Shown here piece after piece: positions 4,700 through 38,090 of a stretch of DNA of 38,856 nucleotides. The notes under the pieces were generated by a model, which was given only the letters and a program-made list of their open reading frames with translations, did no database searches and was not told the DNA's origin. Within the stretch, counting starts at the first letter, position 1. Every line of letters begins with the position of its first letter. The DNA comes from a bacterium (GTDB lineage: Bacteria > Vulcanimicrobiota > Vulcanimicrobiia > Vulcanimicrobiales > Vulcanimicrobiaceae). Made by a program: the position numbers and the translations under genes. The stretch spans positions 1-38,856 of the forward strand of contig JAKAPO010000001.1 in NCBI GenBank assembly GCA_021807065.1. Reading direction: 5' to 3'.

Positions 4700-5658
4700 C
4701 AGGCTTTCCCTAGTAATTCTTGGACACCGCTCACGATCTCGTTTCGAAACGCCGCAAGGCTCCCAGTGTCCTTGGAGGCGGGCTTACGAACGAGCACGCT
4801 CGGCACCTGGTATGGCGCCCACTCTTGAGAGCTGAGCCGGAAGTAACGGTTTTCGAAGGCGACGACCGTGGGCCTGCGCATCGCGCTTGCGACGTGCGTC
4901 GCAGCGGTGTCCACCGTCACGACGCACGATGCGCGCTCGAAGACGGCAGCCCAGGTGAAGAACGGAAGGTGCCCAAGGATCCTGCAGCGCGGCGGGGCTT
5001 CGAGCCTGGCAGCATATTCGACGCTCTCGCGCGGCGTCGTTGCGACGACGGGGCGCCCGAGTGCGACGAGCTCTCGAAGCAGCCGCTGCGTCGAGTCGAT
5101 CGAGCTTCCTTGATCGAACCACCGGCGCCCCAGGTGCAGCACGATCGGATGCTCCGGCAGCGCCTCGATCGCCCTGCGGTCCTCCTCCCGAACGTCGAGC
5201 CGCAAGCGCGTGATGCGCGTCCTAGCCCCGGCCAATGCCACGAGGTCGAGCAGTTGATCGACCTCGTGCCGGATCCGCAGCGCCGGATCGCGTTCGCAGA
5301 GCACGGGATCGGCCTCGGATATCATCAGCGTGTCGACGAACGCGGGCGCTGTCAGTCGTGCGAACCAGCGTCGCGCGTACGTGTAGCCGACGCGCCTCTT
5401 TGCACGGCTCGCCCCAACGATCCGCAGGTCCGTAATGCGTGGTGCCAGCGCAACCGCGATGTCGTAATCGCGGCGGAAGGATCCGTTAAGCGCCACCAGT
5501 TCGTCGATGTCGTCGTTGCGCTCCATGACGACGCGATTGTACTTGCTCGTAACCAGCGTCACGCGGGCACTCGGGAACGATGCGCGGATGCTCGCTATTG
5601 CCGGCGTCGACAAGATGAGATCGCCGATGCGATCGGTTCGCGTGAGCAGGATACGCAC
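4699..5658 (-). CDS. Glycosyltransferase family 9 (heptosyltransferase-like)
   Basis: MRILLTRTDRIGDLILSTPAIASIR N-terminus and VVTVDTAATHVASAMRRPTVV C-terminal motif, characteristic of the ADP-heptose:LPS heptosyltransferase family. Confidence 0.8.
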   Translation of the reverse strand: MRILLTRTDRIGDLILSTPAIASIRASFPSARVTLVTSKYNRVVMERNDDIDELVALNGSFRRDYDIAVALAPRITDLRIVGASRAKRRVGYTYARRWFARLTAPAFVDTLMISEADPVLCERDPALRIRHEVDQLLDLVALAGARTRITRLRLDVREEDRRAIEALPEHPIVLHLGRRWFDQGSSIDSTQRLLRELVALGRPVVATTPRESVEYAARLEAPPRCRILGHLPFFTWAAVFERASCVVTVDTAATHVASAMRRPTVVAFENRYFRLSSQEWAPYQVPSVLVRKPASKDTGSLAAFRNEIVSGVQELLGKA

Positions 5659-5664
5659 GTCGCG

Positions 5665-6549
5665 TTACTTGCCCAGTTCCTCGAAATACGCCTCGGTCGC
5701 CAGCCGCCGCGCCGCGCGTTCCTGATGCTTGGAAAGCACGGCCTCGGGTTTCACGTCCGCGAGCACCGCACGACAGTGGGCAGCCACTCCGCTGCGGGCG
5801 ATGGCGCCGTGCAACGCTCTCGCCGCTGCGTAGTTGCCGGTGGCGAGGTAGGCGCGCCAGTGCGGATGGAGGCGCACTAGCTCGAGCGCGGTGCGCGCCT
5901 GGGCGCGCGCCTGGCGCTGCATGGCATCGAGGCTCGCACCGCGTAGAGGCGGCTTGTAGTGGTAGACGAGCGCGCGCCGATTGAACGTTGCGCGCACGCG
6001 GGCGGCGCGTAACCGTAAGCCGACGTCGATGTCTTCCCAGCCATACTCCGCAAACGTTTCGTCGAAGCCGCCGACATTACGCAGCGTCTCAAGCGGTACC
6101 GAGACGTTGGTAGTCCAAAAGTAGTTCCCACTGTAATTGCGTATCGACCATACCGGAGGCGGCAGGTCGTCGAAGGATTCGACGTTGATTGCTCCGCCGC
6201 GCACGATGTTACTGGGATACCGCGTGCCGGAACGGAGGTGCTCCTCGACGAAGTTCGGTAACGGAAGAACGTCATCGTCGATGAAAATGATGCGCTCTCC
6301 CGTTGCGGCTGCTATGCCAGTGTTGCGCGCCTTCGCTAGGCCGCCGTTGGGCCGGTCGATCGCGACGAACTTGCATGGCGCAAGCGGCCGCATGCGCTCG
6401 ACGAGCGCACGCGTATCGTCGGTCGAGCCGTCGTTTACGAGGACGACTTCATACGCGTCGCCGTCAACGGTCTGCTCGAAACACGCGTCGAGCACGCGTT
6501 CGAGCAAAGCGCGACGGTTGTAGGTGCAGAGCTGAATCGTCGCCTTCAT
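5665..6549 (-). CDS. Glycosyltransferase family 2
   Basis: TIQLCTYNRRALLERVL...VVLVNDGSTDDT and IIFIDDDV (DxD) motifs. Confidence 0.85.
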   Translation of the reverse strand: MKATIQLCTYNRRALLERVLDACFEQTVDGDAYEVVLVNDGSTDDTRALVERMRPLAPCKFVAIDRPNGGLAKARNTGIAAATGERIIFIDDDVLPLPNFVEEHLRSGTRYPSNIVRGGAINVESFDDLPPPVWSIRNYSGNYFWTTNVSVPLETLRNVGGFDETFAEYGWEDIDVGLRLRAARVRATFNRRALVYHYKPPLRGASLDAMQRQARAQARTALELVRLHPHWRAYLATGNYAAARALHGAIARSGVAAHCRAVLADVKPEAVLSKHQERAARRLATEAYFEELGK

Positions 6550-9793: not shown

Positions 9794-10649
9794 GCGCCAA
9801 CTCGCGGGTATAGATGCCGTCCAGAAACTGTGCGCGAGCCAGAGCGCGCAAGGGCGGTGGAAGCCACGCACTGGATGCCGCGCCCGCATAGACGGCAAGC
9901 AGCGCGTCCGGAAAGAAGTACTTCCCGCGCAAGAGATTTGCCGCGTATGCACCGGTTGCAAGCCGCGCACGACGCGTCGGCCGCTTGTGCACGAACCGTG
10001 CCGCCATTTGCGCCTTCTCCATCGCCTTGCGCGTCTCGATCTCGAGCGTGTTCTCCGCGGGAGGTTTCACGTGCCAGAGGTACGTCTCCCAGGCAAAGCG
10101 ATGGTGCATGCCACGGTCTTTCAAGCGGACGCCGAGCTCGGTATCCTCCCAGCCGTAGAGCTGGAACGCCTCATCGAACCCGCCAACCTCGACGAGCGCG
10201 TATCGCGGCACCGACACGTTACACGTGCAGAAGAACGCCCTCGAATAGTTCGCAACCGAAGGGCGAGGGCGTTCCTCATAGGACGCGACGTTGAGTATGG
10301 GACCCGTCACGACCAGAGCATCGTTCGTATGGGCCGCATCGTGTGCGGCTATCCAGCCGGGAGGCACGGTGACGTCGTCGTCGCAGAATAGCACGAGCTG
10401 CCCTTCGGCGACCTCGACGCCGCGATTGCGAGCCTTCCCACGGTTCGGTTCCGGCTCGTAAACGTATCGAAGCGGAGGGCGGCGCATCTCCATCGCGCGC
10501 TCGACGATATCGCGCGTCGAATCCGTCGAACCGTTATCCACCACGACGACTTCGAAGGGGGGTGCGCCGATCTGCCCTTCGAGCGATCGCAACGCTCGCT
10601 CGAGCGCGCGGGCGCGATCTTTCGTCGCGATGAGGACGGAAATTCTCAT
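9777..10649 (-). CDS. Glycosyltransferase family 2
   Basis: MRISVLIATKDRARALERAL...VVVVDNGSTDST and LFCDDDV motifs. ATGA overlap with the stop of the upstream LpxB-like gene. Confidence 0.85.
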   Translation of the reverse strand: MRISVLIATKDRARALERALRSLEGQIGAPPFEVVVVDNGSTDSTRDIVERAMEMRRPPLRYVYEPEPNRGKARNRGVEVAEGQLVLFCDDDVTVPPGWIAAHDAAHTNDALVVTGPILNVASYEERPRPSVANYSRAFFCTCNVSVPRYALVEVGGFDEAFQLYGWEDTELGVRLKDRGMHHRFAWETYLWHVKPPAENTLEIETRKAMEKAQMAARFVHKRPTRRARLATGAYAANLLRGKYFFPDALLAVYAGAASSAWLPPPLRALARAQFLDGIYTRELARALER

Positions 10650-11869
10650 CGGCCGCTGCTCGCGAGTTCAAGCAATGCGTTCGCCATGCGGCTGGCCGCG
10701 CCGCCGTGGGACGCATAGAGCACCCGTAACCTCGCGGCACTCTCGTCGAGCCACTCACGGTCGTCGTAGCTCTGCAACGCTACGCGCGCGACGCGCCCCG
10801 GAGTGAGGGTGCCGTGCAGCTCGCGTACGATCATCTCGCCGAGGTCGATGTTCGGCTGCGTATGAAACGCGTGCTTGCGCGAAATCGAAACCGCCACGGC
10901 GCGCTTCAGATATCTACCGGCAACCGGAACGCGATCGAGATACGTGAGGGGGCCGTTAAACGTGGCTAGCTCCGCCGCGTTGAGCGGCGTGACCGCAAGT
11001 GTCGGCACGCCTACCGCGGCCAGCTCGATGCACTTGGTCCCGGGGATAGTGATTGCCAGCCGCGCTCGTCGTGCGGCCGAAATAGCGTGACGCAGCACGG
11101 CGAATCGAACGCTTCCATCGAGCGATACCAAGAACGTTCGGCCTTCTTCCTCGATCAGCCGTCCACGCTTGGAGTAGACTCGCGGATCGCCGCCGCGCTC
11201 GACCGCGTCGCGCAGTTGGCCGTTCGACGTGAACGGCGAGACGCCGAACGCGACGGGGAATCCCGGCCGCTCGCGCACGACGCGCAGCGCCATCGTAAAG
11301 AAAAACGGCACGAGATGCTCAACTTCGTACTTTCGCGAACCCGGCATCACGAGGATACCGTCGTTCGGCGCGCCGGTCTCCGGAGGAAGCTGCGCCTCGA
11401 TAAGCGCTCCATCTATTGCGAGATTGCCGACGATCGTTATGCGATCTGCCGGCGTCCCAGTCTCTCGAAGCTCTCGCGCGTTCCTTTCATCGACCGCGAA
11501 TGCCCGTGCGAACGTCGTGCGATAAGCGCGGCGGGAGAACTTGTATGTTGCGGCAACGCCGCCGAATCGGCGATGAAGGCGCGCGGCGTGCATCAGGTCA
11601 CCCCCGAGATACTGCACGACGTCGACGTCGCTTGGAAGGTCGCCACGCCGGGCGCCAAATGCAACGGCAAGATACCGTTTGGGATCGTAAACGTGTGCCT
11701 GCGGGAACAGCGCCCGGACGATCTGCGATTCCCTGCCGGTCGCGTAGTCGTCGGGAACGATGAACACATGCACGTCGCAATCCGGCGCAAGCCGATAGAG
11801 GCGCACGAGCAGCGGACGCACCCAACCGGCGACCTCCCCTGGGCCGTTTGCGGTAAGCACCAACCGCAC
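10646..11869 (-). CDS. Lipid-A-disaccharide synthase-like glycosyltransferase (GT19/LpxB-related)
   Basis: The length (about 407 aa) and pattern resemble LpxB-related proteins: VRLVLTANGPGEVAGWVRPL, ..ILVMPGSRKYEVEHL.., ..ITIPGTKCIELAAVGVPTLAV... The first in-frame canonical start after the hldC stop is GTG 11869. The upstream part of the track ORF overlaps hldC and is rejected. The family assignment was made by eye only. Confidence 0.55.
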   Translation of the reverse strand: MRLVLTANGPGEVAGWVRPLLVRLYRLAPDCDVHVFIVPDDYATGRESQIVRALFPQAHVYDPKRYLAVAFGARRGDLPSDVDVVQYLGGDLMHAARLHRRFGGVAATYKFSRRAYRTTFARAFAVDERNARELRETGTPADRITIVGNLAIDGALIEAQLPPETGAPNDGILVMPGSRKYEVEHLVPFFFTMALRVVRERPGFPVAFGVSPFTSNGQLRDAVERGGDPRVYSKRGRLIEEEGRTFLVSLDGSVRFAVLRHAISAARRARLAITIPGTKCIELAAVGVPTLAVTPLNAAELATFNGPLTYLDRVPVAGRYLKRAVAVSISRKHAFHTQPNIDLGEMIVRELHGTLTPGRVARVALQSYDDREWLDESAARLRVLYASHGGAASRMANALLELASSGR

Positions 11870-11885
11870 CTTAACGAGCCTCTGA

Positions 11886-12380
11886 TCAACCGTAACGCGC
11901 GATGATGCGCGCAATCGTTTGCGTCGTGGAAATCCCGGCAACGTGCGGTGCGAGGCGTACCTCGCCGCCGTGCTGGAGCACGACGTTTCGCTCCGGTAAC
12001 TCTTCCTCTTTATACTGCGCGCTCTTCGTGTGGATGTCCGGCCGAATCCGCTCGAGCAGCGCCTCCGGCGTCCGTTCGCCAAACCCCACGACGACGTCGA
12101 CGCTGCGCAGCGCCGCCAGCAATCGCGCCCGTTGCGCGAACGGTACGATTGGACGCTGCGGCCCCTTGATGCGCGCAACCGACGCATCGTCGTTGAGCCC
12201 CACGATGAGGGCGTCGCCCTGGGCGCGGGCCCAGGCGAGATACTCTGCATGCCCGGCGTGCAGCACGTCAAAACAGCCGTTCGTGAAGACGACGCACCTT
12301 CCGGTGGCGCGCTGTTCTTCGCGCCATGCCGCTGCGGCGTCTGCGTCGAGCAGTTTGCCGAACGGCGCTTCAGCGTTCAT
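11886..12380 (-). CDS. hldC: D-beta-D-heptose 1-phosphate adenylyltransferase (RfaE domain II as a separate protein)
   Basis: VVFTNGCFDVLHAGHAEYL (HxGH nucleotidyltransferase motif), LIVGLNDDASV, GISTTQTIARI. 164 aa cytidylyltransferase-like fold. Confidence 0.85.
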   Translation of the reverse strand: MNAEAPFGKLLDADAAAAWREEQRATGRCVVFTNGCFDVLHAGHAEYLAWARAQGDALIVGLNDDASVARIKGPQRPIVPFAQRARLLAALRSVDVVVGFGERTPEALLERIRPDIHTKSAQYKEEELPERNVVLQHGGEVRLAPHVAGISTTQTIARIIARYG

Positions 12381-27695: not shown

Positions 27696-28286
27696 ATGGT
27701 GACCTTGCGCTCGGTCGTCCTGGCGAGCGCCTCGCCGCGCCGCCTAGAGCTGCTTCGCAGCCTCGGGTTGCACGTCGAGGTTGCGCCCAGCACCTACGGG
27801 GAGCCCGAAACGGCATCGCACTCCCCCGCCGAGCTCGCGCAACTGCACTCGCGTGCAAAGCTCGAGCAGGTTCGCCGAACCCGTTCGACCGCCGTGGTGG
27901 TCGCCGCCGACACCGTCGTCGACATCGACGGCCGGGCGCTCGGTAAACCGCGCGATTCGGATGAGGCAAAGCGGATGCTCCGCCTCCTCTCAGGGCGGGC
28001 GCATCTCGTCCATACGGCCTATGCCCTCGCCGTGCCGGAGAGGGCACCGGTCGAGGAGGTGCGCACGACCGTCGTGCGCTTCCGTGCGCTTCAGCCGGAG
28101 GATATCGCGGAATACGTCGCCACCGGTGAGTCAATGGACAAGGCCGGAGCATACGGCATCCAAGGGAGGGCGGCCGCGTTGATCGACTCGATCGACGGCG
28201 ATTACTTCACGGTGATGGGATTCCCGCTCGGCGATTTCATTCGAAACCTACGACGCTTGGGATTTTCACTGCCGACTGCGAAATAG
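27696..28286 (+). CDS. maf: Maf-like nucleoside triphosphate pyrophosphatase
   Basis: VLASASPRRLELL, VVAADTVV, KAGAYGIQG motifs. Confidence 0.9.
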   Translation: MVTLRSVVLASASPRRLELLRSLGLHVEVAPSTYGEPETASHSPAELAQLHSRAKLEQVRRTRSTAVVVAADTVVDIDGRALGKPRDSDEAKRMLRLLSGRAHLVHTAYALAVPERAPVEEVRTTVVRFRALQPEDIAEYVATGESMDKAGAYGIQGRAAALIDSIDGDYFTVMGFPLGDFIRNLRRLGFSLPTAK

Positions 28287-28302
28287 TAGCCCTGGGCCCA
28301 CA

Positions 28303-29103
28303 GTGTACCGAGACGAACGGAAACTCTTCGCGCTGCTCGGCGTGATTATCATCGCCGCGCTCCTTGCGCTCGTACAGATCAGCGCCGCGCGCAGCGGTCG
28401 CGAGGGCCCGATCATTTGGCTGGGCTCTTCGGTCGCAGTCTTCCTCGAAGACGTTGCCACCTCGCTCACGCGAGGCGTACGCGATACCGGCGGGAGCGTG
28501 CTTTCGGTGCCGCAACTCGGCCATGAAAATGCCGCCCTGCGAGCGCAAAACGAACAGCTCGCGGCCGACAACGCCCGCTTGCGCGAGGAGCTAGCGCAAT
28601 ACCGTGCAGCCGCGTCGATAGCGCCCGTTGCCGACCGCTATCCCGACGGCGTCGTCGCCCGTGTCATCGGCTTCCCGCCCGAGAACGAGTCGCGAACGGT
28701 CTCGATCGATCGCGGATCGGCGAGCGGCGTCAAGCCCAACGACGGCGTCGTGACCGGGGACGGCGTGGTGGGAAAAATCGCCGCCGTCACGCCGTTCTCG
28801 AGCCAGGTGGTTCTCATCACCGACTACACCAGCCGGATTCCCGCGATCGTTCGAGAGGGACGCTTTTGGGGAATCGCTCAAGGCAATCTCACGAGCGTTC
28901 GCCTGCGGTACGTCTCGCAGGATGCGCGCTTGCGGCCAGGCGACGTCGTCGTCACCGGTAATGGCCGTTCGTTCGCCTCCGGGATTCCGATCGGCACGAT
29001 CGTCAAGGTCGATCGTAGCGATGCGGCTCTCTACCAAACCGCACTTCTCCGTCCGGCGGTCGAGCTGGGCACGCTCGACCGCGTCGTCGTCCTCACGAGA
29101 TGA
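28303..29103 (+). CDS. mreC: Rod shape-determining protein MreC
   Basis: N-terminal TM helix, coiled coil (ENAALRAQNEQLAADNARLREELAQYR), then beta-rich domains (GDGVVGKIAAV.., VVTGNG..FASGIPIGTIV). Confidence 0.85.
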   Translation: MYRDERKLFALLGVIIIAALLALVQISAARSGREGPIIWLGSSVAVFLEDVATSLTRGVRDTGGSVLSVPQLGHENAALRAQNEQLAADNARLREELAQYRAAASIAPVADRYPDGVVARVIGFPPENESRTVSIDRGSASGVKPNDGVVTGDGVVGKIAAVTPFSSQVVLITDYTSRIPAIVREGRFWGIAQGNLTSVRLRYVSQDARLRPGDVVVTGNGRSFASGIPIGTIVKVDRSDAALYQTALLRPAVELGTLDRVVVLTR

Positions 29104-29651
29104 CCGCTCTCCCCCGGACGGGCACGCGTTCGACCCGCCATCGCGGTCCCTCCTTACGCCGCGCGATCATCTGGCTGTTGCCCGCGCTGCTCGCTCAAGG
29201 AACCGTCATGCATTACGCGATCGTCAATGGTGCCGAACCGAGTCTCGTGCTCGTCGCGGCGGTTTGGTTCGCAATGCGAACGGGCGACCCGGCGAAAGCT
29301 GCGCTCTTCGGATTCCTCGCCGGAGCGGGCGAAGACGTTCTTGCGTTCGACCCGGCCGGCACCTGGACGATCGCGACGACCGTCACCGTACTGCTGGCGT
29401 CGCTCCCGACGCGCCGCTTCTTCGAAGATTCGATTCCCCTTTTCGCCTTAGTGGCTGGGTGTGCCACATTGCTTCGATCGTTCGTCTATTGGAGTGCGAA
29501 AAGTCTCGAGGGATATCCGGCCGGTCTCGCGACGATTCACTTTCACAAGGCGCTCGAAGCATCCGTCTTGAACGCGGCGCTCGCCATCCTCGTCATGGCC
29601 GTCGCGCGACGCTTTGAACGCCGCGATGCTCTCGCGCGAATTCGTAGATGA
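29100..29651 (+). CDS. mreD: Rod shape-determining protein MreD
   Basis: Polytopic small membrane protein in the canonical position, with ATGA overlaps to mreC upstream and mrdA downstream. GFLAGAGEDVL resembles the MreD G..GL..D motif. Confidence 0.65.
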   Translation: MTALPRTGTRSTRHRGPSLRRAIIWLLPALLAQGTVMHYAIVNGAEPSLVLVAAVWFAMRTGDPAKAALFGFLAGAGEDVLAFDPAGTWTIATTVTVLLASLPTRRFFEDSIPLFALVAGCATLLRSFVYWSAKSLEGYPAGLATIHFHKALEASVLNAALAILVMAVARRFERRDALARIRR

Positions 29652-31507
29652 CGCCGCGAGGAGTTCCCGCGAGCGCGCGCGCCGGGTGGGAGAGACCGGC
29701 TTTTCGCATCGCCGTATTCGTGGCAGTCGTCCTACTAGCATTACTCCTCCTCGCAGGCCGGCTCGTCCAGATTCAGCTCATCGACGGCGCGCGTTACCGG
29801 GCGGCGGCGCAGGCGAATCAGATCAGGCTCATCCCCGTCGCCGCGCCGCGCGGCCTCATCTACGATCGTAATAACGTGGTGATCGCGCGCAGCCGGCCTT
29901 CGTTCGTGGTTGGAATCATTCCGTCGGAAATCCACGATATCTCAAAAGAACTCGCCACGGTCTCGAAAACGATCGGCGTCCCCGAAGAGGCCCTGCTGTA
30001 CAAACTCTACCATCATCACGGCATAAACTACACTTCATTCTCGCAGGTCGTGGCTAACGAACCTTACGGGCCGATCGTGTTGGCAACGGACCTGCCAGTC
30101 AGAACCGTTGCGCGCCTCTCCGAAATCCTGACCGATCTTCCCGGCTTCGATCTCGAAGTGCAACCGATTCGCGAATATCCCTATGGAGAAATCGGGTCAC
30201 ACATCCTCGGCTACGTCGGCGATATCACCGCGCAAGAGTACGCGCGGTTGCGAAGGTTCGGGTATTCGGAAAACGACGTCGTCGGCAAGGACGGTCTCGA
30301 AGCGGAGTACGATCGCTATCTGCGCGGTCAACCCGGTGGCGAACGCGTAGAAGTCGATGCAACCGGTGAAGTAGTGAAGAGCGCGCGCTTTCCCGACAAG
30401 CCGGCGGTGCCCGGCGACGCGTTGGTAACGGCGCTCGATTGGCGATTGCAGCGCATCGTCGAAGCAGCGCTCGCCCAGGGGTTGCGCAAGTGGTGCCGCA
30501 CATGTGGGTTGACGGGGGCAGTCGTTGCGGAGGATCCGTACAACGGTGAGATTCTCGCGCTTGCGAGTTTTCCAAACTTCAATCCGAATGCCTTCGCGAC
30601 GTATGACTACGCCAGCATCGAATCGTATCTGACTTCCGCACTCGAACCTCTCTTCGATCGCGCGATCGCTGCAGCAACGCCGACCGGTTCGACGTTCAAG
30701 ATGGTGACTGGCTCCGCGGCGCTGACGGAAGGCGTCATCGGCGAGAACCAGGTCGTCTACGATACGGGTGCGTGGGACTGCGGCGGATACCTCGCGCGAG
30801 ACATCGTCGCCGGCGGCCTTGGCTACACGACGTTCGTTCCAGCTCTGGCCGCTTCGAGCGACGGGTACTTCTTTCGTCTGTCGTGGTATCTCGGCAACGA
30901 ACGTCTGCGCAAGTGGGCGCTAGCGTTCGGCCTCGGGCATCGAACCGGTATCGATCTGCCTGGAGAAAGCTCCGGAAACTGGCCGACGAACGCGTGGATG
31001 GAGAAGAATTACGGCGTTCCGCTCGAACCCGCCGATGTTTGCAGTCTGGGAATAGGGCAGGGCGCCATGCAAGCGACGCCGCTGCAGATGGCCAACGTGG
31101 CGTCTGCGGTCATCAACGGCGGGACTCTGTATCGCCCCCACGTCGTGACCGAGATACGAACGGCGCAAGGCGTCGTGATCAAACGCTTTCCACCGCGAAT
31201 TATCAGGCGGGTTCCCGCGAGCCAGGCCGCACTGCGCGCGGTCCGCACGGGAATGGCGGAAGTTACCGATCCCGGCGGCACTGCATACGGTTTAGCGATC
31301 GCCGGCCTGCCATTCTCGGGGAAAACCGGAACCGTCGAAACAGACGGCGGTCACGGACCCAACACAACGTGGTTTATATGCTGGGCACCGACGCACCACC
31401 CGAAATTTGCGCTCGCCGTCTACGTCGATCGGAGTGGCGGTTACGGCGCAACGGTTGCGGCCCCGATTGCCCGGCAGATTCTCGTGAAGTATTTCAATAA
31501 GAAGTAG
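29648..31507 (+). CDS. mrdA: Penicillin-binding protein 2 (elongasome transpeptidase)
   Basis: N-terminal TM helix, PBP dimerisation domain (RLIPVAAPRGLIYDRNN), and transpeptidase motifs STFK, SSD (SxN-like) and KTGT. Confidence 0.9.
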   Translation: MTPRGVPASARAGWERPAFRIAVFVAVVLLALLLLAGRLVQIQLIDGARYRAAAQANQIRLIPVAAPRGLIYDRNNVVIARSRPSFVVGIIPSEIHDISKELATVSKTIGVPEEALLYKLYHHHGINYTSFSQVVANEPYGPIVLATDLPVRTVARLSEILTDLPGFDLEVQPIREYPYGEIGSHILGYVGDITAQEYARLRRFGYSENDVVGKDGLEAEYDRYLRGQPGGERVEVDATGEVVKSARFPDKPAVPGDALVTALDWRLQRIVEAALAQGLRKWCRTCGLTGAVVAEDPYNGEILALASFPNFNPNAFATYDYASIESYLTSALEPLFDRAIAAATPTGSTFKMVTGSAALTEGVIGENQVVYDTGAWDCGGYLARDIVAGGLGYTTFVPALAASSDGYFFRLSWYLGNERLRKWALAFGLGHRTGIDLPGESSGNWPTNAWMEKNYGVPLEPADVCSLGIGQGAMQATPLQMANVASAVINGGTLYRPHVVTEIRTAQGVVIKRFPPRIIRRVPASQAALRAVRTGMAEVTDPGGTAYGLAIAGLPFSGKTGTVETDGGHGPNTTWFICWAPTHHPKFALAVYVDRSGGYGATVAAPIARQILVKYFNKK

Positions 31508-31524: not shown

Positions 31525-31830
31525 GTGCCTTTCATCGGATTCGCCGTCGTCGTCATACTCGCTCTCGCCGTCTACGGCGTATCCGCGCGGCGCCACCGCA
31601 ATGAGCAGCCGCAGTTGGTGGCACTGGACAGACCCCCGCTTCTCTGGACGAAGGAAGCCGCCGCTGACGCAGGCTCACCGAGAGAGCGTCTCGCCCTCGC
31701 TGCGCGCCTGGGGTTGGTCGGAGATGGTCGCAGCATCGCGATCCTCGAGCATGCGCTCGCGGACGAGACCGACGCTGAAGTCCGGGACGCGATCTGGCGC
31801 GCGCTCTTGACGTTACGAACGAACCGCTGA
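31525..31830 (+). CDS. Small membrane-anchored HEAT-like repeat protein
   Basis: GTG start 13 nt after GAGGAA. One N-terminal TM helix (FIGFAVVVILALAVYGV), then LALAARLGLVGDGRSIAILEHALADETDAEVRDAIWRAL, which matches the HEAT/PBS-lyase repeat pattern. Paralogue of 32400..32843. Confidence 0.5.
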   Translation: MPFIGFAVVVILALAVYGVSARRHRNEQPQLVALDRPPLLWTKEAAADAGSPRERLALAARLGLVGDGRSIAILEHALADETDAEVRDAIWRALLTLRTNR

Positions 31831-32403
31831 AGCCAAACCTGCAGCGGCCCGCAGCGCGTCGAGCACGCTGCGCAGCGCCCGATCGAGTTGCACGTCCGAT
31901 GCGCCCGTCACCCACTGCAAGAACTTGCGTGGCGGCAGTTCCGCAAACGCCGTCAAACGCCGTAGCAGCAGCGCTCTGTACGGAGCGAGCACCTCGGTCG
32001 CGGTGCCGCCGTAGGAAATCATCGTTCCCAAGAGTTCTGCGGAGAGCAGCCACGGGAGTACCGAGCCGAGCGGCGCGACCGATAGCTCGGCGAGCAATGC
32101 GGTTACACGGTCGGAATCGGCGACGCCGTCGATACGGATTGCACCGTCTTGCACCGGCGCAAGCGTTGGCACGCCTTGGGCGATAGCGACCGTGCGCGCG
32201 CGTTCCTCGAACGATTCGAGATCCTCGCCTTCAATTTCGCGTGGATTCCTTACGAACAGGCGCTCGACCCGCGCTCGCATCGGCTCCGCCGGTGCACTGA
32301 AGGCGCACAGCGAGAGCAGGTGTACGATCGGTGTCGTCCACAGCGCGCCTTCGATGAGACGCACGTCGTGCAGCAGCGGCCGCGCGCCGACGTCCCGCGT
32401 CAT
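31813..32403 (-). CDS. Hypothetical protein, paralogue of the C-terminal domain of the DUF11 giant protein
   Basis: 196 aa. ATGA overlap with the upstream gene. Aligns by eye with the last ~180 aa of the 32870..36085 product (for example YRALLLRRLTAFAELPPRKFLQWV versus YRALLVDRLDTFAECDPSQFVEAL). Confidence 0.6.
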   Translation of the reverse strand: MTRDVGARPLLHDVRLIEGALWTTPIVHLLSLCAFSAPAEPMRARVERLFVRNPREIEGEDLESFEERARTVAIAQGVPTLAPVQDGAIRIDGVADSDRVTALLAELSVAPLGSVLPWLLSAELLGTMISYGGTATEVLAPYRALLLRRLTAFAELPPRKFLQWVTGASDVQLDRALRSVLDALRAAAGLASAVRS

Positions 32404-32843
32404 CGCGCTGCGGCGACTGCTTCCCTCGATTCCTCGGGTCTGATCATCAGCGTAAGCGTACCAACGATGCGCTTAGCACGATCGCCAGGATGCTGGGCGA
32501 GGAAACGCTCGACGATCGGCGCGCGCCCAGAACCGGCAAGCGCGTGCGCCGCCGCAAGTGCAACCGTTTCGTTCGGATCGCGTAGGGCGAACTCGAGCAT
32601 GTGCGTCGAGCGTTCGTCCTGCAGCGCAGCAACGGCGAAAATTAAGTCGCACCGTGCCGATTCGGAGAGGCCGGCGAACTCCTGGCCGGCTTCGTTTGTC
32701 CAATCGGTCGTTGCCTGCAACGGTTCGCGATCCACGCTATCGAGTAACGTCGGCTCTTCGGCGGAGCGCCGCGGTGCGACGACGGCATAGATGGCGAGCA
32801 AGATGCCGAGTACGAACAAAACGGCTATGGCGATGGTAATCAT
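32400..32843 (-). CDS. Small membrane-anchored HEAT-like repeat protein
   Basis: Start proposed at ATG 32843 (MITIAIAVLFVLGILLAIYAVV, a TM helix), preceded by GGGGGA. ..CDLIFAVAALQDERSTHMLEFALRDPNETVALAAAHAL.. is HEAT-like. The upstream Arg-rich part of the track ORF is rejected. Confidence 0.55.
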   Translation of the reverse strand: MITIAIAVLFVLGILLAIYAVVAPRRSAEEPTLLDSVDREPLQATTDWTNEAGQEFAGLSESARCDLIFAVAALQDERSTHMLEFALRDPNETVALAAAHALAGSGRAPIVERFLAQHPGDRAKRIVGTLTLMIRPEESREAVAAAR

Positions 32844-32869
32844 AGAGCAGTAGTTCCCCCGGGTTCTTC

Positions 32870-35800
32870 TTACATGACGGTAGCGCGCAGAGAGGTGGTG
32901 AAACCATCGAGCGCCGCATCGAGAACGCCGTCGGCCCGCTGCGCGAGCGCCTCGACGAATTGCGACGGGTCGCACTCGGCGAACGTATCGAGACGGTCGA
33001 CGAGCAAAGCACGATAGTGTTCCGCTTGCGGCGTCGAGTCAGGCAGGAGTCGCGCGAGCGCCGCCCACGGAAGGGCGGTTGCCGGCGGCGCCCCGTGCAG
33101 GCGCTCGGCGATCTCTCGAATGGCGGCAGGATCGTAACCGCCTCGCAGCGAGAGCGCCACTCCCGGCGCGTCCGCGGGTGCTCCGTGCGCGGCGGCGGCT
33201 TCATGGAGAAACCGCTCGATCGTCGCGCGTGACGCCGCCGATTCGATGTCGCGAGCAGTAATCGTAAAGTTGGGCAGGCGCAGCTTGATGAAGAGGCGAT
33301 CCAGCTCCTCGTGCAGCACGTCGGCGACAGGTGCGAGCGAGACCTGCCCTTCGCCCAGGACATCGGGCAGAAACGCTCGCAACGCAAACAGGTGTGTCAC
33401 GAATCCGCCGAAGTGTGCCTCGTCGACGAAACGCAACGTGCGCGCGAGCCATTCGTTACCGAAGGTCAGCAGCGTTCCGACACGGGCGGTCCCGTCCGCG
33501 TATCCGTTACCGTATGCCACTTCCGGCGCCGGAAAGGACGCATACTGACCGATGACCGGCTCGACTGCCGGCTCCACGTGCGTCTCGGCACGCGCGCCGC
33601 TATCGGCCGCTGGGCCGACGACGCCTTCCAACCCGAACTGAAGTCCGGGAATCGCGTTGGCGAAGACCGGTGCCGCCAGTACTTTCAGCTCATCGGAGGC
33701 AATCTCGTCGTAGCGGTCGTTGTCGTAGGTCACGTGCGCGACGCGTACGATCGCTTCACCCGCCGGCAGCTGATTGTGCACGACGTCCCGCCAGCGAATC
33801 GTCGCCTCGACGCCCGGATCGAACTCATTGAGAACGATCCCGCGCTCGCTCGCAAACGGCCCGACCGCGCCCACATCGCGAATCGGCACATCGTTCACCG
33901 TCGTCGAATTTGGCACATAAATAAGCGATGTCGGTTGCGCAACGCGAATCTGTACCTGCCGCGCAGGTCCGTCGCCGCCGTTACGAAGCTTCAAGACCCA
34001 CTCGACTGTCTCGCCGAGGTCCGCTGCGTCGCTCGGATGGCTGCGGAAGCTGCCCACCGAGAAATCCGGCGAAGCCGTCGTTACGATCGTCAGGCGTTCG
34101 AGCGGAACCGGAAGCATCGAGTCGGCCGTGAGCACCGCATCGACCGTCAGCGGATGCTCTTTGGGCACGCTGCGGAGCAGCCGCAGGCCCAGGCGCGCCT
34201 GCGCGGCCGCACCGGGGGCAATCTCGCCGAAGAGAATAGAGGAGCGTTCGCGAGTCGCACCTTCGACGCTTTCGAAACGCGCTTCTGGTGATATCAACAG
34301 GCGAACGCGCACGTTGCGGGCGGCATCGCTGCCGTTGTTGACGAGGTGGACGATCGCCTCGGCAAGCTGGTTTGGCCGTAAGAGCGCGCCGCTGGCGAGT
34401 TCTATGCGCGACGCACTCGTCGAGAACGCAGGATGCGAATCGACGCGCCATGAGGCCTCGCCGAGCTGCGTCTCGCCTAGTTCGCGCGTCACGAGGCTCG
34501 CGCCGACGACGATCTCACTACGATCGGCATACGGGCTGCGGACTCGCGCCTGCATCGTGATGCGGCGCGCCGCGTAGGGGTCGATCGGTCCGAGTTCGGC
34601 TGTCGCGTTCTCGAACGGAATCCGGACGCCTCGTTCTAAGAGACACGCGTCTTCGAGGGCAGGGTCGAGCCGCAATTGCAGCAGCGCCTCGGTAGCCGGC
34701 GCGCTGCCGTCGTTGGCAACGAAGATCGTCGCCTCGATCTCTTGGCCGGGCCGCACGACCTCTTCGCCCGCGCGCGAAATTACATTTCGCCGGCGCGCCA
34801 GCGCGGGTTCCGAATGAACGACGATGCTACGCTCGAAGCGTCTCGATGCCTCGTCTTGCGACGGTTCCCACGCCATCATTGCACGGATGGACAGGGCAGT
34901 GCCATCGGCGAGCGGCGCGACGACGATCGCCTCGCTGCGCAGTTCGACTCGCTCGCCGCCTTCGATGCGGCCGAGGTCGAATGCAAGGTGGTCGGCCCTG
35001 CGCTCGCGTGCCGGGCGTCCGTCGATGCGAGCGCCGCCACGAACGTGGATTAGCGAATCGGGAAGATCGAGGGACAGCGTTGCGGACTCAGCGGCCGCCG
35101 TTCCGCAGTTGTGCGCGACGAACGTGAGCACCACGCGTTCTCCGGGCCGGACTTGCGTCGAGGGCTCGACCGTCAGCACCGTACGATCGTCACCGAAGTC
35201 GGGCGCGGCATGTACGACGAGCGTCGCCGGCTGGACCGAAAATGCGGGAGTCTCCTGCGAGGCAACCTGCGCGTTGGCGACGATGAGCGTTCCGTTGGGA
35301 AGCGGCGAGTCGATCCTTACGCGATAGACGAGCATCGTGCTCGCGCTGGCTGAGAGGACCGCGCCGACGACGGGTGCGTAGACGCGATCGAAACTGCAAC
35401 CGAGATCGCGCTCGATCTCGCGGCCGTTGACGCGCGCCGATCCCGCAACGTAGCTGGTGTGCTCGGGAACCGGAGCAACTACGACGACGTCATGCGCGCT
35501 CGATTCGCCGGCATTGTGCACCCGGACGGTGATCTCCGCTTCGGTTCCCGGCGCGGGGTCTCTGCGCGTTTCGACGGTGACGCCGGTCAGAGCGTTGAGC
35601 AGCTGCGGCCGGCTTCGTGCGATCAACCGCACGACGTTCGATCCAACCGGTTGCACTTCAAACGAAGCGACCGCCGCCTGGAGCTCGATCGTGGTGCCGT
35701 TTTCGATTGCGCCGACGACGCTGTACGCGATCTCGATACGTCGCTCTTCACCCGGGCCGACGTCGCCGATGTGTGCCCCGTTGCGACCGAGAAGCGGCGA

Positions 35801-36085
35801 GTTTCCTAATTCGTCATCCAAATCGGCGCCGTCCAAGCGGCCGCTGCCGACGAGATAGACCAAGCCTTCGGGCAAGTTGAATCGCACCCGCACGCCGGTT
35901 GCCGCCGCACCTCCGTTGTTACGGAACGTGAAGACCGCGCGCACCGTCATCCCAGGTTCCAACTCGCGCTCAGGCGAAACGACGAGCGTTCTGAGACCTT
36001 CAGGCAACGTCGGCGCGCCCGGCGTGAATATTTCAGACAGGGTACGCATACAGGTTGGGCACGTTTGCTTCGCCGCTCCCGCCAT
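32870..36085 (-). CDS. Giant repeat protein: six DUF11/CARDB-like Ig-fold repeats plus an unassigned helical C-terminal domain, with no recognisable signal peptide
   Basis: Six repeats of ~115-125 aa with the pattern PG..V...F.V.N.G...A..V.V...LP..L.YV.GS (for example EPGMTVRAVFTFRNNGGAAATGVRVRFNLPEGLVYLVGSG and DLGETVEWVLKLRNGGDGPARQVQIRVAQPTSLIYVPNS). The start is ambiguous (ATG 36133, 36085 or 36049). The upstream track extension overlaps the divergent aminotransferase gene. Confidence 0.75.
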   Translation of the reverse strand: MAGAAKQTCPTCMRTLSEIFTPGAPTLPEGLRTLVVSPERELEPGMTVRAVFTFRNNGGAAATGVRVRFNLPEGLVYLVGSGRLDGADLDDELGNSPLLGRNGAHIGDVGPGEERRIEIAYSVVGAIENGTTIELQAAVASFEVQPVGSNVVRLIARSRPQLLNALTGVTVETRRDPAPGTEAEITVRVHNAGESSAHDVVVVAPVPEHTSYVAGSARVNGREIERDLGCSFDRVYAPVVGAVLSASASTMLVYRVRIDSPLPNGTLIVANAQVASQETPAFSVQPATLVVHAAPDFGDDRTVLTVEPSTQVRPGERVVLTFVAHNCGTAAAESATLSLDLPDSLIHVRGGARIDGRPARERRADHLAFDLGRIEGGERVELRSEAIVVAPLADGTALSIRAMMAWEPSQDEASRRFERSIVVHSEPALARRRNVISRAGEEVVRPGQEIEATIFVANDGSAPATEALLQLRLDPALEDACLLERGVRIPFENATAELGPIDPYAARRITMQARVRSPYADRSEIVVGASLVTRELGETQLGEASWRVDSHPAFSTSASRIELASGALLRPNQLAEAIVHLVNNGSDAARNVRVRLLISPEARFESVEGATRERSSILFGEIAPGAAAQARLGLRLLRSVPKEHPLTVDAVLTADSMLPVPLERLTIVTTASPDFSVGSFRSHPSDAADLGETVEWVLKLRNGGDGPARQVQIRVAQPTSLIYVPNSTTVNDVPIRDVGAVGPFASERGIVLNEFDPGVEATIRWRDVVHNQLPAGEAIVRVAHVTYDNDRYDEIASDELKVLAAPVFANAIPGLQFGLEGVVGPAADSGARAETHVEPAVEPVIGQYASFPAPEVAYGNGYADGTARVGTLLTFGNEWLARTLRFVDEAHFGGFVTHLFALRAFLPDVLGEGQVSLAPVADVLHEELDRLFIKLRLPNFTITARDIESAASRATIERFLHEAAAAHGAPADAPGVALSLRGGYDPAAIREIAERLHGAPPATALPWAALARLLPDSTPQAEHYRALLVDRLDTFAECDPSQFVEALAQRADGVLDAALDGFTTSLRATVM

Positions 36086-36136
36086 GCCCCCTTGGAGAAC
36101 AACTACTGCTTTCGTCACTGCTAGAGGGACCATTAG

Positions 36137-37333
36137 ATGCTTGCCACGACCCAGGATCGGATAGCCGCCGCCGTCAAGCGGCTCGGCTCCGAAAACGCTT
36201 TCCTCGTCCTCGCCCGGGCACGGGCGCTCGAGAAGCAGGGGCGCAAAGTCGTTCACCTCGAGATCGGCGAACCCGATTTCGATACGCCCGAAGCGATCAA
36301 AGCGGCCGCGGCGGCCGCCATGCGCGCGGGTTACACCCACTACACCCCGTCGGCCGGCTCGATGGACCTACGAGAAGCCATCGCCGACTATGCCGGTGCG
36401 TTTCGGGGCATTCCCTATGCGCCGAGAAACGTGGTCGTCGGTCCGGGCGCCAAGCCGCTCATTTGGAACACGCTCTGCGCACTGCTCGATCCGGGCGATG
36501 AGTTCGTCTATTTCGACCCGGCATACCCGGCCTACGCGTCGGCGGCCAGCTACCTGCAAGCCAACGTGACGGCGATACCACTGCTCGAGTCGCGGAACTG
36601 GCGCATGGATCTCGACGAGCTGGAGCGCCGGGTGAGCGACCGCACCAAACTGCTCGTCATCAACTCACCGCACAACCCCACCGGCGGCGTGCTGCAACTC
36701 GACGATCTCGAACGCATCGCCGAGCTCGCACGGCAGCACGATTTCCTCGTACTCGCCGATGAGATCTACAGCCGCAACTTCTACCTCGATCGCGGGTTCG
36801 TTTCGATTGCGTCACTCCCCGGAATGCGCGAACGGACGATCGTCGTCGACGGATTCTCGAAAGCATACGCGATGACCGGCTGGCGGCTCGGGTACGCGCT
36901 GATGCCCGAAGAACTTGCGAACGTCGTGACCCTCTTCAATAACAATACGTTTAGCTGCGTCACCTCGTTCGTGCAACAAGCCGGCATCGCTGCGCTAAAA
37001 GGACCCGATGAGCCGGTTCGCACGATGAATGCGCTTTTCCGCGAGCGCCGCGATCGCATCGTCGGGGGTCTCAATCAGATTCCGGGATTCTCGTGCGCGC
37101 TGCCGGAGGGTGCGTTCTACGCCTTCCCCAACATCTCGAAGATCACGCGCGACGACCGCGCGCTAGCAAACTTTTTGCTCGAGGAGGCCGGCGTTGCATG
37201 CACGTGGGGCTCCGCCTTCGGCGCGGCAGGCAAGGGATATCTGCGCTTCTCCTATGCAACGTCGCTCGAAGATATCGACGTCGCGCTCGACTCCATCGCA
37301 AAATCGCTGCCGAAGTTCACTCGCTCGGGTTAG
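36137..37333 (+). CDS. Pyridoxal phosphate-dependent aminotransferase, class I/II (aspartate aminotransferase-like)
   Basis: HLEIGEPDFDTP, INSPHNPTGG, FSKAYAMTGWRLGY (PLP lysine). Good SD sequence GAGGGA 7 nt upstream of the ATG. Confidence 0.9.
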   Translation: MLATTQDRIAAAVKRLGSENAFLVLARARALEKQGRKVVHLEIGEPDFDTPEAIKAAAAAAMRAGYTHYTPSAGSMDLREAIADYAGAFRGIPYAPRNVVVGPGAKPLIWNTLCALLDPGDEFVYFDPAYPAYASAASYLQANVTAIPLLESRNWRMDLDELERRVSDRTKLLVINSPHNPTGGVLQLDDLERIAELARQHDFLVLADEIYSRNFYLDRGFVSIASLPGMRERTIVVDGFSKAYAMTGWRLGYALMPEELANVVTLFNNNTFSCVTSFVQQAGIAALKGPDEPVRTMNALFRERRDRIVGGLNQIPGFSCALPEGAFYAFPNISKITRDDRALANFLLEEAGVACTWGSAFGAAGKGYLRFSYATSLEDIDVALDSIAKSLPKFTRSG

Positions 37334-37557: not shown

Positions 37558-38090
37558 TGAGTAAGAACGCGAGCATGCTCTTGCGTCTCCCCATCGTCGC
37601 CTTCGCCGCGCTGCTTCTGGCGCAGGGTGTGGCGACTGCGGCGCCGCCGCCCATGCCCCCGCAGCCCGGGCAGTCTCAGCAGCCTCCCGTGACGCAACCA
37701 ACGATGCTTCCGTCGTTCTCGCCGACCGCAACGCCGGCGTCTACCGCGGCTCCAACGCCGGCCTACGCGCCCACGCCGCCCAGCGGCGGCGCGGTGATGC
37801 CTCGTGCCAGAGAGTGGATGCAGCGCGTACAGACCGGCAATATCGATCGTTCGCAACTGTCAGCGGCTGCGAGCGCGGCGCTCACCGCGCAGATGGTCTG
37901 GAGAATGAAGGCGAGTTACGCCAAGCTGGGCGATCCGATCGCATTCACGTTCGTGAACGAGCAGAACCTCGGCAACGGCAACACCGCGTACAACTACCGC
38001 GTGCGTTTCACCCACGCAACGCTGATCGAGAAGTTCGTTCTCGACGGCAGCGGCAAGATCAGCGGCTTGAGCTTCGCTCCCGCCTCATAG
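37557..38090 (+). CDS. Secreted hypothetical protein (signal peptide, Pro-rich linker, ~100-aa globular domain)
   Basis: MSKNASMLLRLPIVAFAALLLAQGVATA signal peptide, then PPPMPPQPGQSQQPPVTQP.. low-complexity linker, then a C-terminal domain (..AYNYRVRFTHATLIEKFVLDGSGKISGLSF). The upstream part of the track ORF overlaps the aminotransferase gene and is rejected. Confidence 0.6.
   Translation: MSKNASMLLRLPIVAFAALLLAQGVATAAPPPMPPQPGQSQQPPVTQPTMLPSFSPTATPASTAAPTPAYAPTPPSGGAVMPRAREWMQRVQTGNIDRSQLSAAASAALTAQMVWRMKASYAKLGDPIAFTFVNEQNLGNGNTAYNYRVRFTHATLIEKFVLDGSGKISGLSFAPAS

Follow-up and report, generated by a model that had tools for sequence, protein, structure and literature searches.

A tandem-duplicated gene pair of Vulcanimicrobiota joins DUF11/CARDB-repeat proteins that lack export signals with small HEAT-like membrane proteins

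Giant adhesins of type I secretion systems (T1SS), such as those of the LapA/RTX class, have no N-terminal signal and carry their targeting information at the C terminus, and the dockerin and cohesin parts that anchor cellulosome scaffoldins are extracellular and Sec-exported. The DUF11 domain, now called CLIPPER, forms adhesin stalks that are stabilized by a Lys-Asn isopeptide bond, a feature that is not universal (bioRxiv 10.1101/2025.04.25.650565). Here, we describe a locus that resembles each of these in part. It lies in a 38,856-nt stretch (hereafter, the window) of contig JAKAPO010000001.1 of assembly GCA_021807065.1, a genome of the Vulcanimicrobiaceae (phylum Vulcanimicrobiota, equivalent to Eremiobacterota), and encodes a giant immunoglobulin (Ig)-like repeat protein that ends in a distinctive C-terminal domain (C-dom), followed by a small protein (TM-HEAT, or anchor) with a transmembrane (TM) helix and HEAT-like repeats. 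This gene pair is present twice, the second time without the repeats.

The original prediction had read the region as a three-gene operon of the giant, a single-pass HEAT-like protein, and a 196-aa protein. Its middle gene is placed as described (32400..32843) and shares an ATGA overlap (32403..32400) with the 196-aa gene, but a second TM-HEAT gene, at 31525..31830 on the plus strand, had been overlooked. What is actually present are two tandem two-gene modules, each consisting of a C-dom protein and a TM-HEAT protein, with the fourth gene inverted in the window lineage (Table 1). Both copies contain the two elements by which the module is defined, the anchor of copy 2 being the inverted gene. 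Anchor 1 starts 26 nt past the TAA stop of the giant, and anchor 2 and the 196-aa gene converge, sharing 18 nt at the 3′ end of the latter.

The C-dom comprises the last 203 residues (857 to 1059) of the giant and is α-helical with a two-stranded sheet. It aligns with the whole of the 196-aa protein (BLASTP E = 1e-13, 31% identity, 194 aligned columns); the similarity noticed earlier is therefore significant, although the domain is longer than the ~180 aa first assigned to it. Motifs common to both types of C-dom are THLFALRAF, DRLFIKLRLP, RDxE, LPW, YRxLL, and LDAALD, and the invariant or near-invariant positions are polar or aromatic (His36, Arg68, Asp84, Arg91, Tyr162, and Asp194); all family-invariant residues are retained in both the giant and the 196-aa protein. 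An AlphaFold2 (AF2) model built from a 20-sequence alignment has ten helices plus the two-stranded sheet, with a predicted local distance difference test (pLDDT) score of 95.2 and a predicted template modeling (pTM) score of 0.91. With Foldseek, this model found no convincing counterpart in the PDB (best E = 1.0, TM-score <0.26) and none at E ≤ 0.001 in BFVD (best, 0.6), and the C-dom profile gave a single chance-level match (E = 1.5) among PDB sequences. There was no consistent Pfam match for 22 diverse members scanned singly and no NCBIfam match for the 196-aa protein or the C-dom region of the giant, and PADLOC returned only noise-level matches for the window module, for which reason a known defense system was rejected as a candidate. 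The original prediction could place the domain in no described family, and these searches agree: to judge from the predicted structure, the C-dom is an undescribed domain family with a fold that is new relative to the PDB and BFVD.

The family is large. An exhaustive HMMER search over 1.84 billion representatives recovered 237 C-dom clusters at 50% identity at E ≤ 1e-3, and 181 at E ≤ 1e-10. The domain ends within about 10 residues of the C terminus in 138 of the 141 members in which it is complete, and its carriers are either proteins of about 800 to 1300 aa or free-standing proteins of about 190 to 240 aa. Divergent full-length members that were tested likewise carry DUF11, CARDB, or NPCBM_assoc repeats. 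The literature on CLIPPER/DUF11 domains and on the phylum, retrieved by queries not aimed at the module, does not mention the pairing of C-dom and TM-HEAT.

Relatives of the module occur in at least 143 species, as found by a scan with one genome per GTDB species, which used the type-1 alignment and reaches only genomes bearing DRLFIKLRL or THLF motifs. Nearly all of the best 80 are metagenome-assembled genomes (MAGs) of Vulcanimicrobiota, the nearest named relative being “Ca. Tyrphobacter”; about eight of the 80 loci carry other submitter labels or none. The cultured strain Vulcanimicrobium alpinum WC8-2 is not represented in this set. Six loci labeled Acidiferrales, Acidoferrum, Babeliales, or Verrucomicrobiia (L016, L035, L056, L060, L067, and L068) have the typical Vulcanimicrobiota arrangement and are probably mis-binned or mislabeled.

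Mapping by tblastn and hidden Markov models (HMMs) over 94 loci bears out the synteny in related genomes on which the original prediction depended. In Vulcanimicrobiota, the module is always situated between a divergent aminotransferase gene and a convergent pbp2–mreD–mreC row, and it takes one of three forms: layout A (giant, TM-HEAT), layout B (giant 1, TM-HEAT 1, giant 2, TM-HEAT 2), and layout C (giant 1, TM-HEAT 1, free C-dom, TM-HEAT 2), the last being that of the window and its closest relatives. C-dom and TM-HEAT genes are strictly paired: their counts are 1:1 in 47 loci and 2:2 in 37, and the gap from the end of the C-dom gene to the start of the TM-HEAT domain is typically <30 nt, or the two overlap. 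Five loci show 2:1 counts, four having a shortened TM-HEAT open reading frame (ORF) that falls under the HMM threshold and the fifth (L059) reaching a contig end; the other exceptions seem to stem from contig ends or from frameshifts in long-read assemblies. Of note is that in eight loci from MFD long-read MAGs (L006, L007, L008, L036, L040, L044, L048, and L049), pbp2, the aminotransferase gene, and the giant are each split into several ORFs, most likely through frameshift errors; as a consequence, the giant can look like several short “C-dom proteins” in databases (e.g., P0006, P0012, and P0035). Seven double-module loci (L015, L020, L022, L028, L030, L042, and L056) have 2.5 to 5.5 kb of extra DNA between the second module and pbp2.

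The pairing extends to distant members of the family. In all six distant loci examined (L089 and L091 to L095), the giant is followed, with an overlap or a gap of <30 nt, by a HEAT protein of 123 to 244 aa with an N-terminal TM helix; five of these partners were confirmed by the TM-HEAT HMM or by translation, and that of L095 by alignment. The neighbors are different here. Four high-GC loci have a divergent Crp-family regulator (cNMP_binding plus HTH_Crp_2) upstream, two of them with a GGDEF diguanylate cyclase beside it and priA further upstream, which hints at cyclic-nucleotide control of the module in this lineage; in one distant locus, ftsA–ftsZ lies about 3 kb away and pseudopilin-like genes are nearby. 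Since the pair persists amid different neighbors, the conserved unit is the gene pair rather than its linkage to pbp2. Separately, L092 (8927-14108, minus strand) and L093 (6992-9932, minus strand) share three homologous genes with type IV pilin-like N termini (GFTLIE or GFSLLE), encoding proteins of 665/555 aa (E = 9e-63), 287/283 aa, and 152/142 aa; these genes have no counterpart in the window and are not counted in the system.

These contexts bear on a specific version of the cytoplasmic reading developed below, by which the module would be an accessory of cell elongation and the arm would work with MreC, MreD, and PBP2, for example as a cytoplasmic scaffold of the elongasome in these rod-like or filamentous cells. 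In Vulcanimicrobiota loci with a captured downstream flank, the module stands tail to tail with pbp2–mreD–mreC; in the window, the inverted anchor 2 begins 17 nt beyond the stop of pbp2 (29648..31507) on the same plus strand, such that it now ends the mreC–mreD–pbp2 gene row; and the proximity of one distant member to ftsA–ftsZ points the same way. However, the flanks are themselves syntenic across the phylum (ParB, ThiE/D, TrpRS, and the aminotransferase on one side; Maf, NadD, Obg, and L27 on the other), and with the whole region syntenic, linkage to pbp2 may be merely inherited gene order. Moreover, pbp2 and mreCD are not nearby in four distant loci, and in most species, the module is convergent with pbp2 rather than co-oriented. 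We regard an elongation-specific role as distinctly unlikely.

The relationship between the two modules was resolved by a distance analysis of 133 C-doms. Those in the first position are all type 1, closer to the C-dom of the window giant, and those in the second position are all type 2, closer to the 196-aa protein (29 fused to repeats, 9 free, and 3 fragments). Its own orthologues aside, the 196-aa protein is closest to C-doms that belong to second giants of full length (L031 and L032), and a full-length type-2 giant of this kind is found in about 30 related species. Synteny and distance classification thus show that the 196-aa gene, which had been taken for a copy of the tail of the window giant, is orthologous to the C-dom of this second giant and represents that giant minus its repeats. 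The two anchors are also paralogues (BLASTP E = 1e-9), and the TM-HEAT types split in the same way as those of the C-doms, which indicates a tandem duplication of the entire two-gene module.

In the Tyrphobacter-like clade, the second giant has subsequently lost its repeat region of about 850 aa, a direction of change that we infer by parsimony from the wide distribution of the fused form. The free type-2 C-dom retains every family-invariant residue and its own anchor. In the window and in L001 to L004, anchor 2 runs opposite to the rest of its module, whereas it is co-oriented in L005 to L007, L009, and L012 to L014 (for example, L005 8050-8388 and L009 11379-11999); a search for inverted repeats flanking anchor 2 yielded only chance-level matches of 10 to 12 nt.

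Persistence of the repeatless form could mean that function resides in the C-dom:anchor pair, which would be a membrane enzyme, ligand-binding, or signaling unit with the Ig array as a dispensable accessory. At least 10 species keep the repeatless type-2 protein together with its anchor intact, invariant residues included; the polar or aromatic character of the invariant C-dom residues, together with an invariant Trp and Arg in the anchors, would suit such a unit, as would the Crp regulators flanking four distant members and the GGDEF genes beside two of those. The C-dom, however, resembles no enzyme or ligand-binding fold found by our searches, and the average conservation of the repeats exceeds that of the C-dom (mean pairwise distances of 0.32 and 0.40, respectively), which argues against dispensability of the array wherever it occurs. 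We consider this reading, of a catalytic, ligand-binding, or signaling core with an accessory array, improbable.

The same gene order raises a comparison with polymorphic toxins, whose contact-dependent inhibition (CDI) and Rhs loci have a cdiA-CT/cdiI pair followed by downstream orphan modules. Judged by order alone, a repeat protein with its C-terminal domain, a small protein, a C-terminal domain on its own, and a second small protein resemble a CDI locus, with a small gene directly 3′ of each C-dom as in toxin/immunity loci; on this reading, the C-dom would be a toxin borne on a delivery filament, the giant; the first small gene would encode the immunity protein, and the 196-aa gene and second small gene would be an orphan pair. 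But rather than being polymorphic, the C-dom retains about 50% identity over at least 143 species and 237 clusters, and for this reason the toxin/immunity locus is largely excluded. Also at odds with it are the orthology of the supposed orphan to the C-dom of a full-length second giant, the fixed chromosomal position amid housekeeping genes, and the lack of a secretion domain or pre-toxin motif, Pfam giving no match and PADLOC noise only. Overall, we rate this explanation as very improbable.

For the giant itself, only one of three candidate start codons is conserved in orthologues, the ATG at 36049 (MRTLSEIFTPGAPTLPEGLRTLVVSPER), from which the protein begins MRTLSEIF (N-terminal peptide, (M)RTLSEIFTPGAPTLPEGLR), and an orthologue (L008) has an in-frame stop just 5′ of this start. 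For both reasons, the gene spans 32870..36049 rather than extending to 36085 or 36133: the 3′ end given earlier stands, and the 5′ end of about 36085 is corrected to 36049. A still longer ORF, to 36340, is an antisense run through the aminotransferase gene.

The six divergent Ig-like repeats of the original prediction are confirmed on three counts. They match Pfam DUF11 (PF01345; 89.4 bits, with a cut-off of 24.6), NPCBM_assoc (54.8 bits), and CARDB (38.0 bits), as well as NCBIfam TIGR01451 (E = 1.2e-27, 95.7 bits, with a cut-off of 24); six N-x-G motifs recur, at residues 44, 179, 314, 446, 571, and 690; and the AF2 model of the full protein (14 full-length relatives in the alignment) is β throughout residues 28 to 793, at a pLDDT of about 80 to 92. 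In this model, residues 1 to 27 are disordered, a linker of 61 aa (794 to 854; pLDDT about 30) is likewise disordered, and residues 857 to 1059 form a compact, α-rich unit; the low overall pTM (0.37) is of the kind that beads-on-a-string proteins give. Foldseek matched the full model to generic Ig-domain arrays, among which the top PDB entries are chains of the ciliary central apparatus (9ijj and 7sqc, with E values from 1e-25 to 1e-21); integrin α, complement/α2-macroglobulin, and PrgB rank lower, and the TM-scores are ≤0.19. The giant holds just four Lys residues in 1059 aa (630, 687, 789, and 922), at positions that are not equivalent between repeats, and so the Lys-Asn isopeptide bond of CLIPPER adhesin stalks is absent from it.

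As originally reported, motif and hydropathy checks find no signal peptide, TM helix, lipobox, or sorting signal on the giant, nor do they find a Tat motif, an LPXTG motif, or an RTX (GGxGxD) motif. The N terminus (MRTLSEIFTPGAPTLPEG) lacks a hydrophobic core, its top 8-residue Kyte-Doolittle score being 1.2; the single LPXTG-like string, LPWAA, lies within the C-dom; and the Pfam matches include no adhesion domain and no cell wall or outer membrane sorting domain (LPXTG, the C-terminal domain of type IX secretion, and the like). A longer N terminus bearing a signal peptide, which would have altered this picture, finds no support, given that orthologues conserve only the ATG at 36049. Furthermore, a signal peptide is missing from all 56 full-length family members examined, each of which enters its first β-sandwich almost directly; this makes the missing export signal a family trait and not an artifact of start-codon choice. 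Elsewhere in the window, an ORF without a Pfam match encloses a region (~37560-38090, plus strand) that has a signal-peptide-like N terminus (MSKNASMLLRLPIVAFAALLLAQGVATAAPPP...) and a Pro-rich stretch, suggesting that exported proteins of this genome use ordinary signal peptides.

Both anchors open with a TM helix from residue 2 and a basic cluster; there follow a linker that contains an invariant Trp, an Arg that is likewise invariant, and roughly two HEAT-like repeats. The αRep proteins are designs derived from HEAT-like repeats of the PBS-lyase type, which bind proteins, and a profile built from TM-HEAT proteins finds αRep chains with E = 1.6e-35. Pfam HEAT_2 is matched by 14 of 16 members at E ≤ 0.1 (best, 3.5e-8), whereas the two window anchors on their own score 17 and 22 bits, under the cut-off of 27.7. 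By the positive-inside rule, basic residues flank the cytoplasmic side of a TM helix. In all 94 distinct anchors, there is no Lys or Arg ahead of the helix, and the 15 residues after it hold at least one and on average 3.9; from this distribution, an N-out, C-in topology with a cytoplasmic HEAT domain is predicted for every one of the 94.

That prediction enters into the choice between a cytoplasmic and an exported giant. As an exported protein, the giant would be a surface fiber or adhesin that leaves the cell in one step by a signal-peptide-independent route (T1SS-like or other), with the C-dom as a secretion or retention domain and TM-HEAT as a chaperone or anchor. Its repeats are of a type typical of surface stalks, it is acidic (pI 5.1), and T1SS adhesins likewise lack an N-terminal signal and are targeted from the C terminus; the Crp and GGDEF genes beside distant members also speak for it, as does the cell envelope, the phylum being diderm and its only cultured member, Vulcanimicrobium alpinum, a diderm rod or filament (PMC9758169). 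Against this, the giant contains no RTX GGxGxD repeats and lacks the stabilizing isopeptide Lys, and its C terminus is a strongly conserved, folded domain of 200 aa (pLDDT 95) rather than a loose secretion signal, one that also exists free-standing and is kept with an anchor of its own. The anchor HEAT domain is predicted to be cytoplasmic throughout, and no ABC transporter, membrane fusion protein (MFP), TolC, or other secretion genes were found in the 38.9-kb window or in the annotated related loci, the scope being these loci and not whole genomes. An exported fiber is, in our estimation, unlikely.

Association of the C-dom with its anchor is suggested by their joint evolution. Over 46 species, the distances of C-dom and TM-HEAT show a partial Mantel correlation of 0.70 when PBP2 is controlled for, a value that none of 2000 permutations attained. 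This is comparable to the 0.78 between repeats and C-dom of the same polypeptide, and the neighboring aminotransferase gives −0.16 and −0.21. Of the earlier proposal that the domain is a docking module joining the repeat protein to a membrane partner, the docking part is the best-supported reading, in view of the 1:1 pairing and the co-varying distances; its other part, non-classical export, finds no support, given the predicted cytoplasmic HEAT domains and the lack of linked secretion genes.

Under the favored model, each C-dom would bind its cognate anchor on the cytoplasmic side of the inner membrane, with the HEAT domain as the docking site. The giant would then be a flexible, membrane-tethered arm of Ig domains that reaches into the cytoplasm and serves as a scaffold or spacer; its length would be roughly 25 to 30 nm, by our own estimate from six β-sandwich domains rather than by computation. 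Repeatless copy 2 would preserve the C-dom:anchor core, and because this core survives without the arm, it may have a function of its own. We give an even chance to this account of two tandem modules with an Ig-repeat arm tethered cytoplasmically through a C-dom on a HEAT anchor; domain architecture, paralogy, strict pairing, co-duplication, repeat loss, and missing export signals are observed, and docking, location, and role are the parts that we propose. More tentatively, and with rather less than even confidence, the arm may be a filamin-like intracellular Ig array with a new-fold docking domain and a HEAT anchor, forming a submembrane scaffold or spacer, possibly with the elongasome, across the phylum and in related lineages.

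Several points weigh against a cytoplasmic arm. The DUF11, CARDB, and NPCBM_assoc domains, as described, are nearly always extracytoplasmic, and the CLIPPER survey finds DUF11-type domains in signal-peptide-bearing fibrillar adhesins (bioRxiv 10.1101/2025.04.25.650565). The topology of the anchors is read from a single criterion, the charge distribution around the helix. A mirror-tree correlation such as that between C-dom and TM-HEAT can reflect shared rate shifts (for example, between single- and double-module lineages), with no contact needed. Finally, the Crp regulators upstream of four distant loci and the GGDEF genes in two would fit a surface or biofilm function as well.

Coordinates of the module and of its associated features are given in Table 1. 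The divergent neighbor of the giant is the aminotransferase gene (36137..37333, plus strand). A promoter scan of the module found no sigma-70-like site, and terminator-like hairpins are no more frequent in it than in shuffled sequence.

Table 1. Features of the module in the window and regulator regions in distant loci (coordinates of the latter refer to the locus named)
Feature	Position	Strand	Basis
Giant type-1 protein, 1059 aa, 113 kDa, pI 5.1	32870..36049	-	ORF list; start by orthologue comparison; Pfam/NCBIfam
Six-repeat array, residues 28-793, ~130 aa per repeat	33671..35968	-	N-x-G motifs; AF2; Foldseek
Linker between repeat array and C-dom, residues 794-856, predicted disordered	33482..33670	-	AF2 pLDDT below 50 over 794-854
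C-dom type 1, residues 857-1059, unclassified α-rich fold	32873..33481	-	AF2; fold and sequence searches; HMMER
TM-HEAT anchor 1, 147 aa, TM helix at residues 2-22, then RR	32400..32843	-	ORF; family profile
Free-standing type-2 C-dom protein, 196 aa	31813..32403	-	BLASTP; orthologues; synteny; distance classification
TM-HEAT anchor 2, 101 aa	31525..31830	+	BLASTP against anchor 1; orientation in other loci
Divergent intergenic region between giant and aminotransferase, 87 nt; presumed promoter region of the module	36050..36136	.	Sequence
Crp regulator region in distant loci	L091 372-1052; L092 3269-3949; L094 8017-9902; L095 8096-9983		

The remainder of the window is housekeeping chromosome, with genes for AspRS, HisRS, PurH, SMC, RNase III, FabF, Obg, Maf, MreC, MreD, PBP2, the aminotransferase, and TrpRS. 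At 27696-29103, maf is followed by mreC, mreD, and pbp2 without an intervening mreB, an order also seen in related loci; mreB was not seen elsewhere in the window. Two further ORFs, at 4720-5877 (plus strand, 386 aa) and 10649-12271 (minus strand, 541 aa), have a coding-like bias in GC content at third codon positions and no Pfam match.

The module is of interest in several respects. It combines a confidently predicted domain family (pLDDT 95), for which neither the PDB nor BFVD holds a fold match, with an obligatory two-gene organization that is found in at least 143 species belonging to a little-known but globally abundant phylum of soil bacteria. If the giant is indeed cytoplasmic, hallmark domains of surface adhesins would be in use inside the cell, to our knowledge the first such use of DUF11/CARDB domains, and pipelines that label every DUF11 protein as surface-exposed would be wrong for this family. 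If it is an intracellular arm, it would represent a new class of prokaryotic membrane-skeleton component. Loci with one module, with two modules, and with a second module devoid of repeats form a natural comparison series for the roles of arm and docking core.

Set against known systems, the repeats are of a familiar kind, and, as far as sequence comparison goes, the C-dom family and its pairing with TM-HEAT are not in Pfam, NCBIfam, or PADLOC. With DUF11/CLIPPER adhesins, the giant shares tandem β-sandwich repeats of the DUF11, CARDB, and NPCBM_assoc types, strung like beads; it differs from them in having no signal peptide, Lys-Asn isopeptide triad, or adhesion or sorting domain, in ending with an unclassified domain, and in its obligatory partnership with a TM-HEAT gene. 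The T1SS giant adhesins (LapA, SiiE, and the RTX class) are similarly giant, acidic Ig-repeat proteins with no N-terminal signal and an important C terminus. Of the features of T1SS substrates, however, only the absence of a signal peptide is seen here: there are no RTX repeats and no linked ABC, MFP, or TolC genes, and the C terminus, far from being unstructured, is folded and also occurs as a separate protein. Intracellular Ig arrays, such as eukaryotic filamin, offer a further comparison: chains of the ciliary central apparatus (9ijj and 7sqc), which are intracellular, supply the top PDB matches of the full model. As there is no sequence relationship, TM-scores are ≤0.19, and generic Ig arrays match one another readily, this likeness is a lead and not evidence of homology or of location. 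Outside the membrane, both anchors probably belong, by their family profile, with PBS-lyase-type HEAT proteins (Pfam HEAT_2/HEAT_PBS), from which the anchors differ by having only about two repeats, an N-terminal TM helix, and a Trp-containing linker. In functional terms, there is an analogy with the dockerin/cohesin pairs of cellulosomes, where a modular repeat protein with a C-terminal docking domain meets a dedicated anchor and where the pairs are co-duplicated; the folds are unrelated, and in the module described here, the binding domain of the anchor is predicted to face the cytoplasm.

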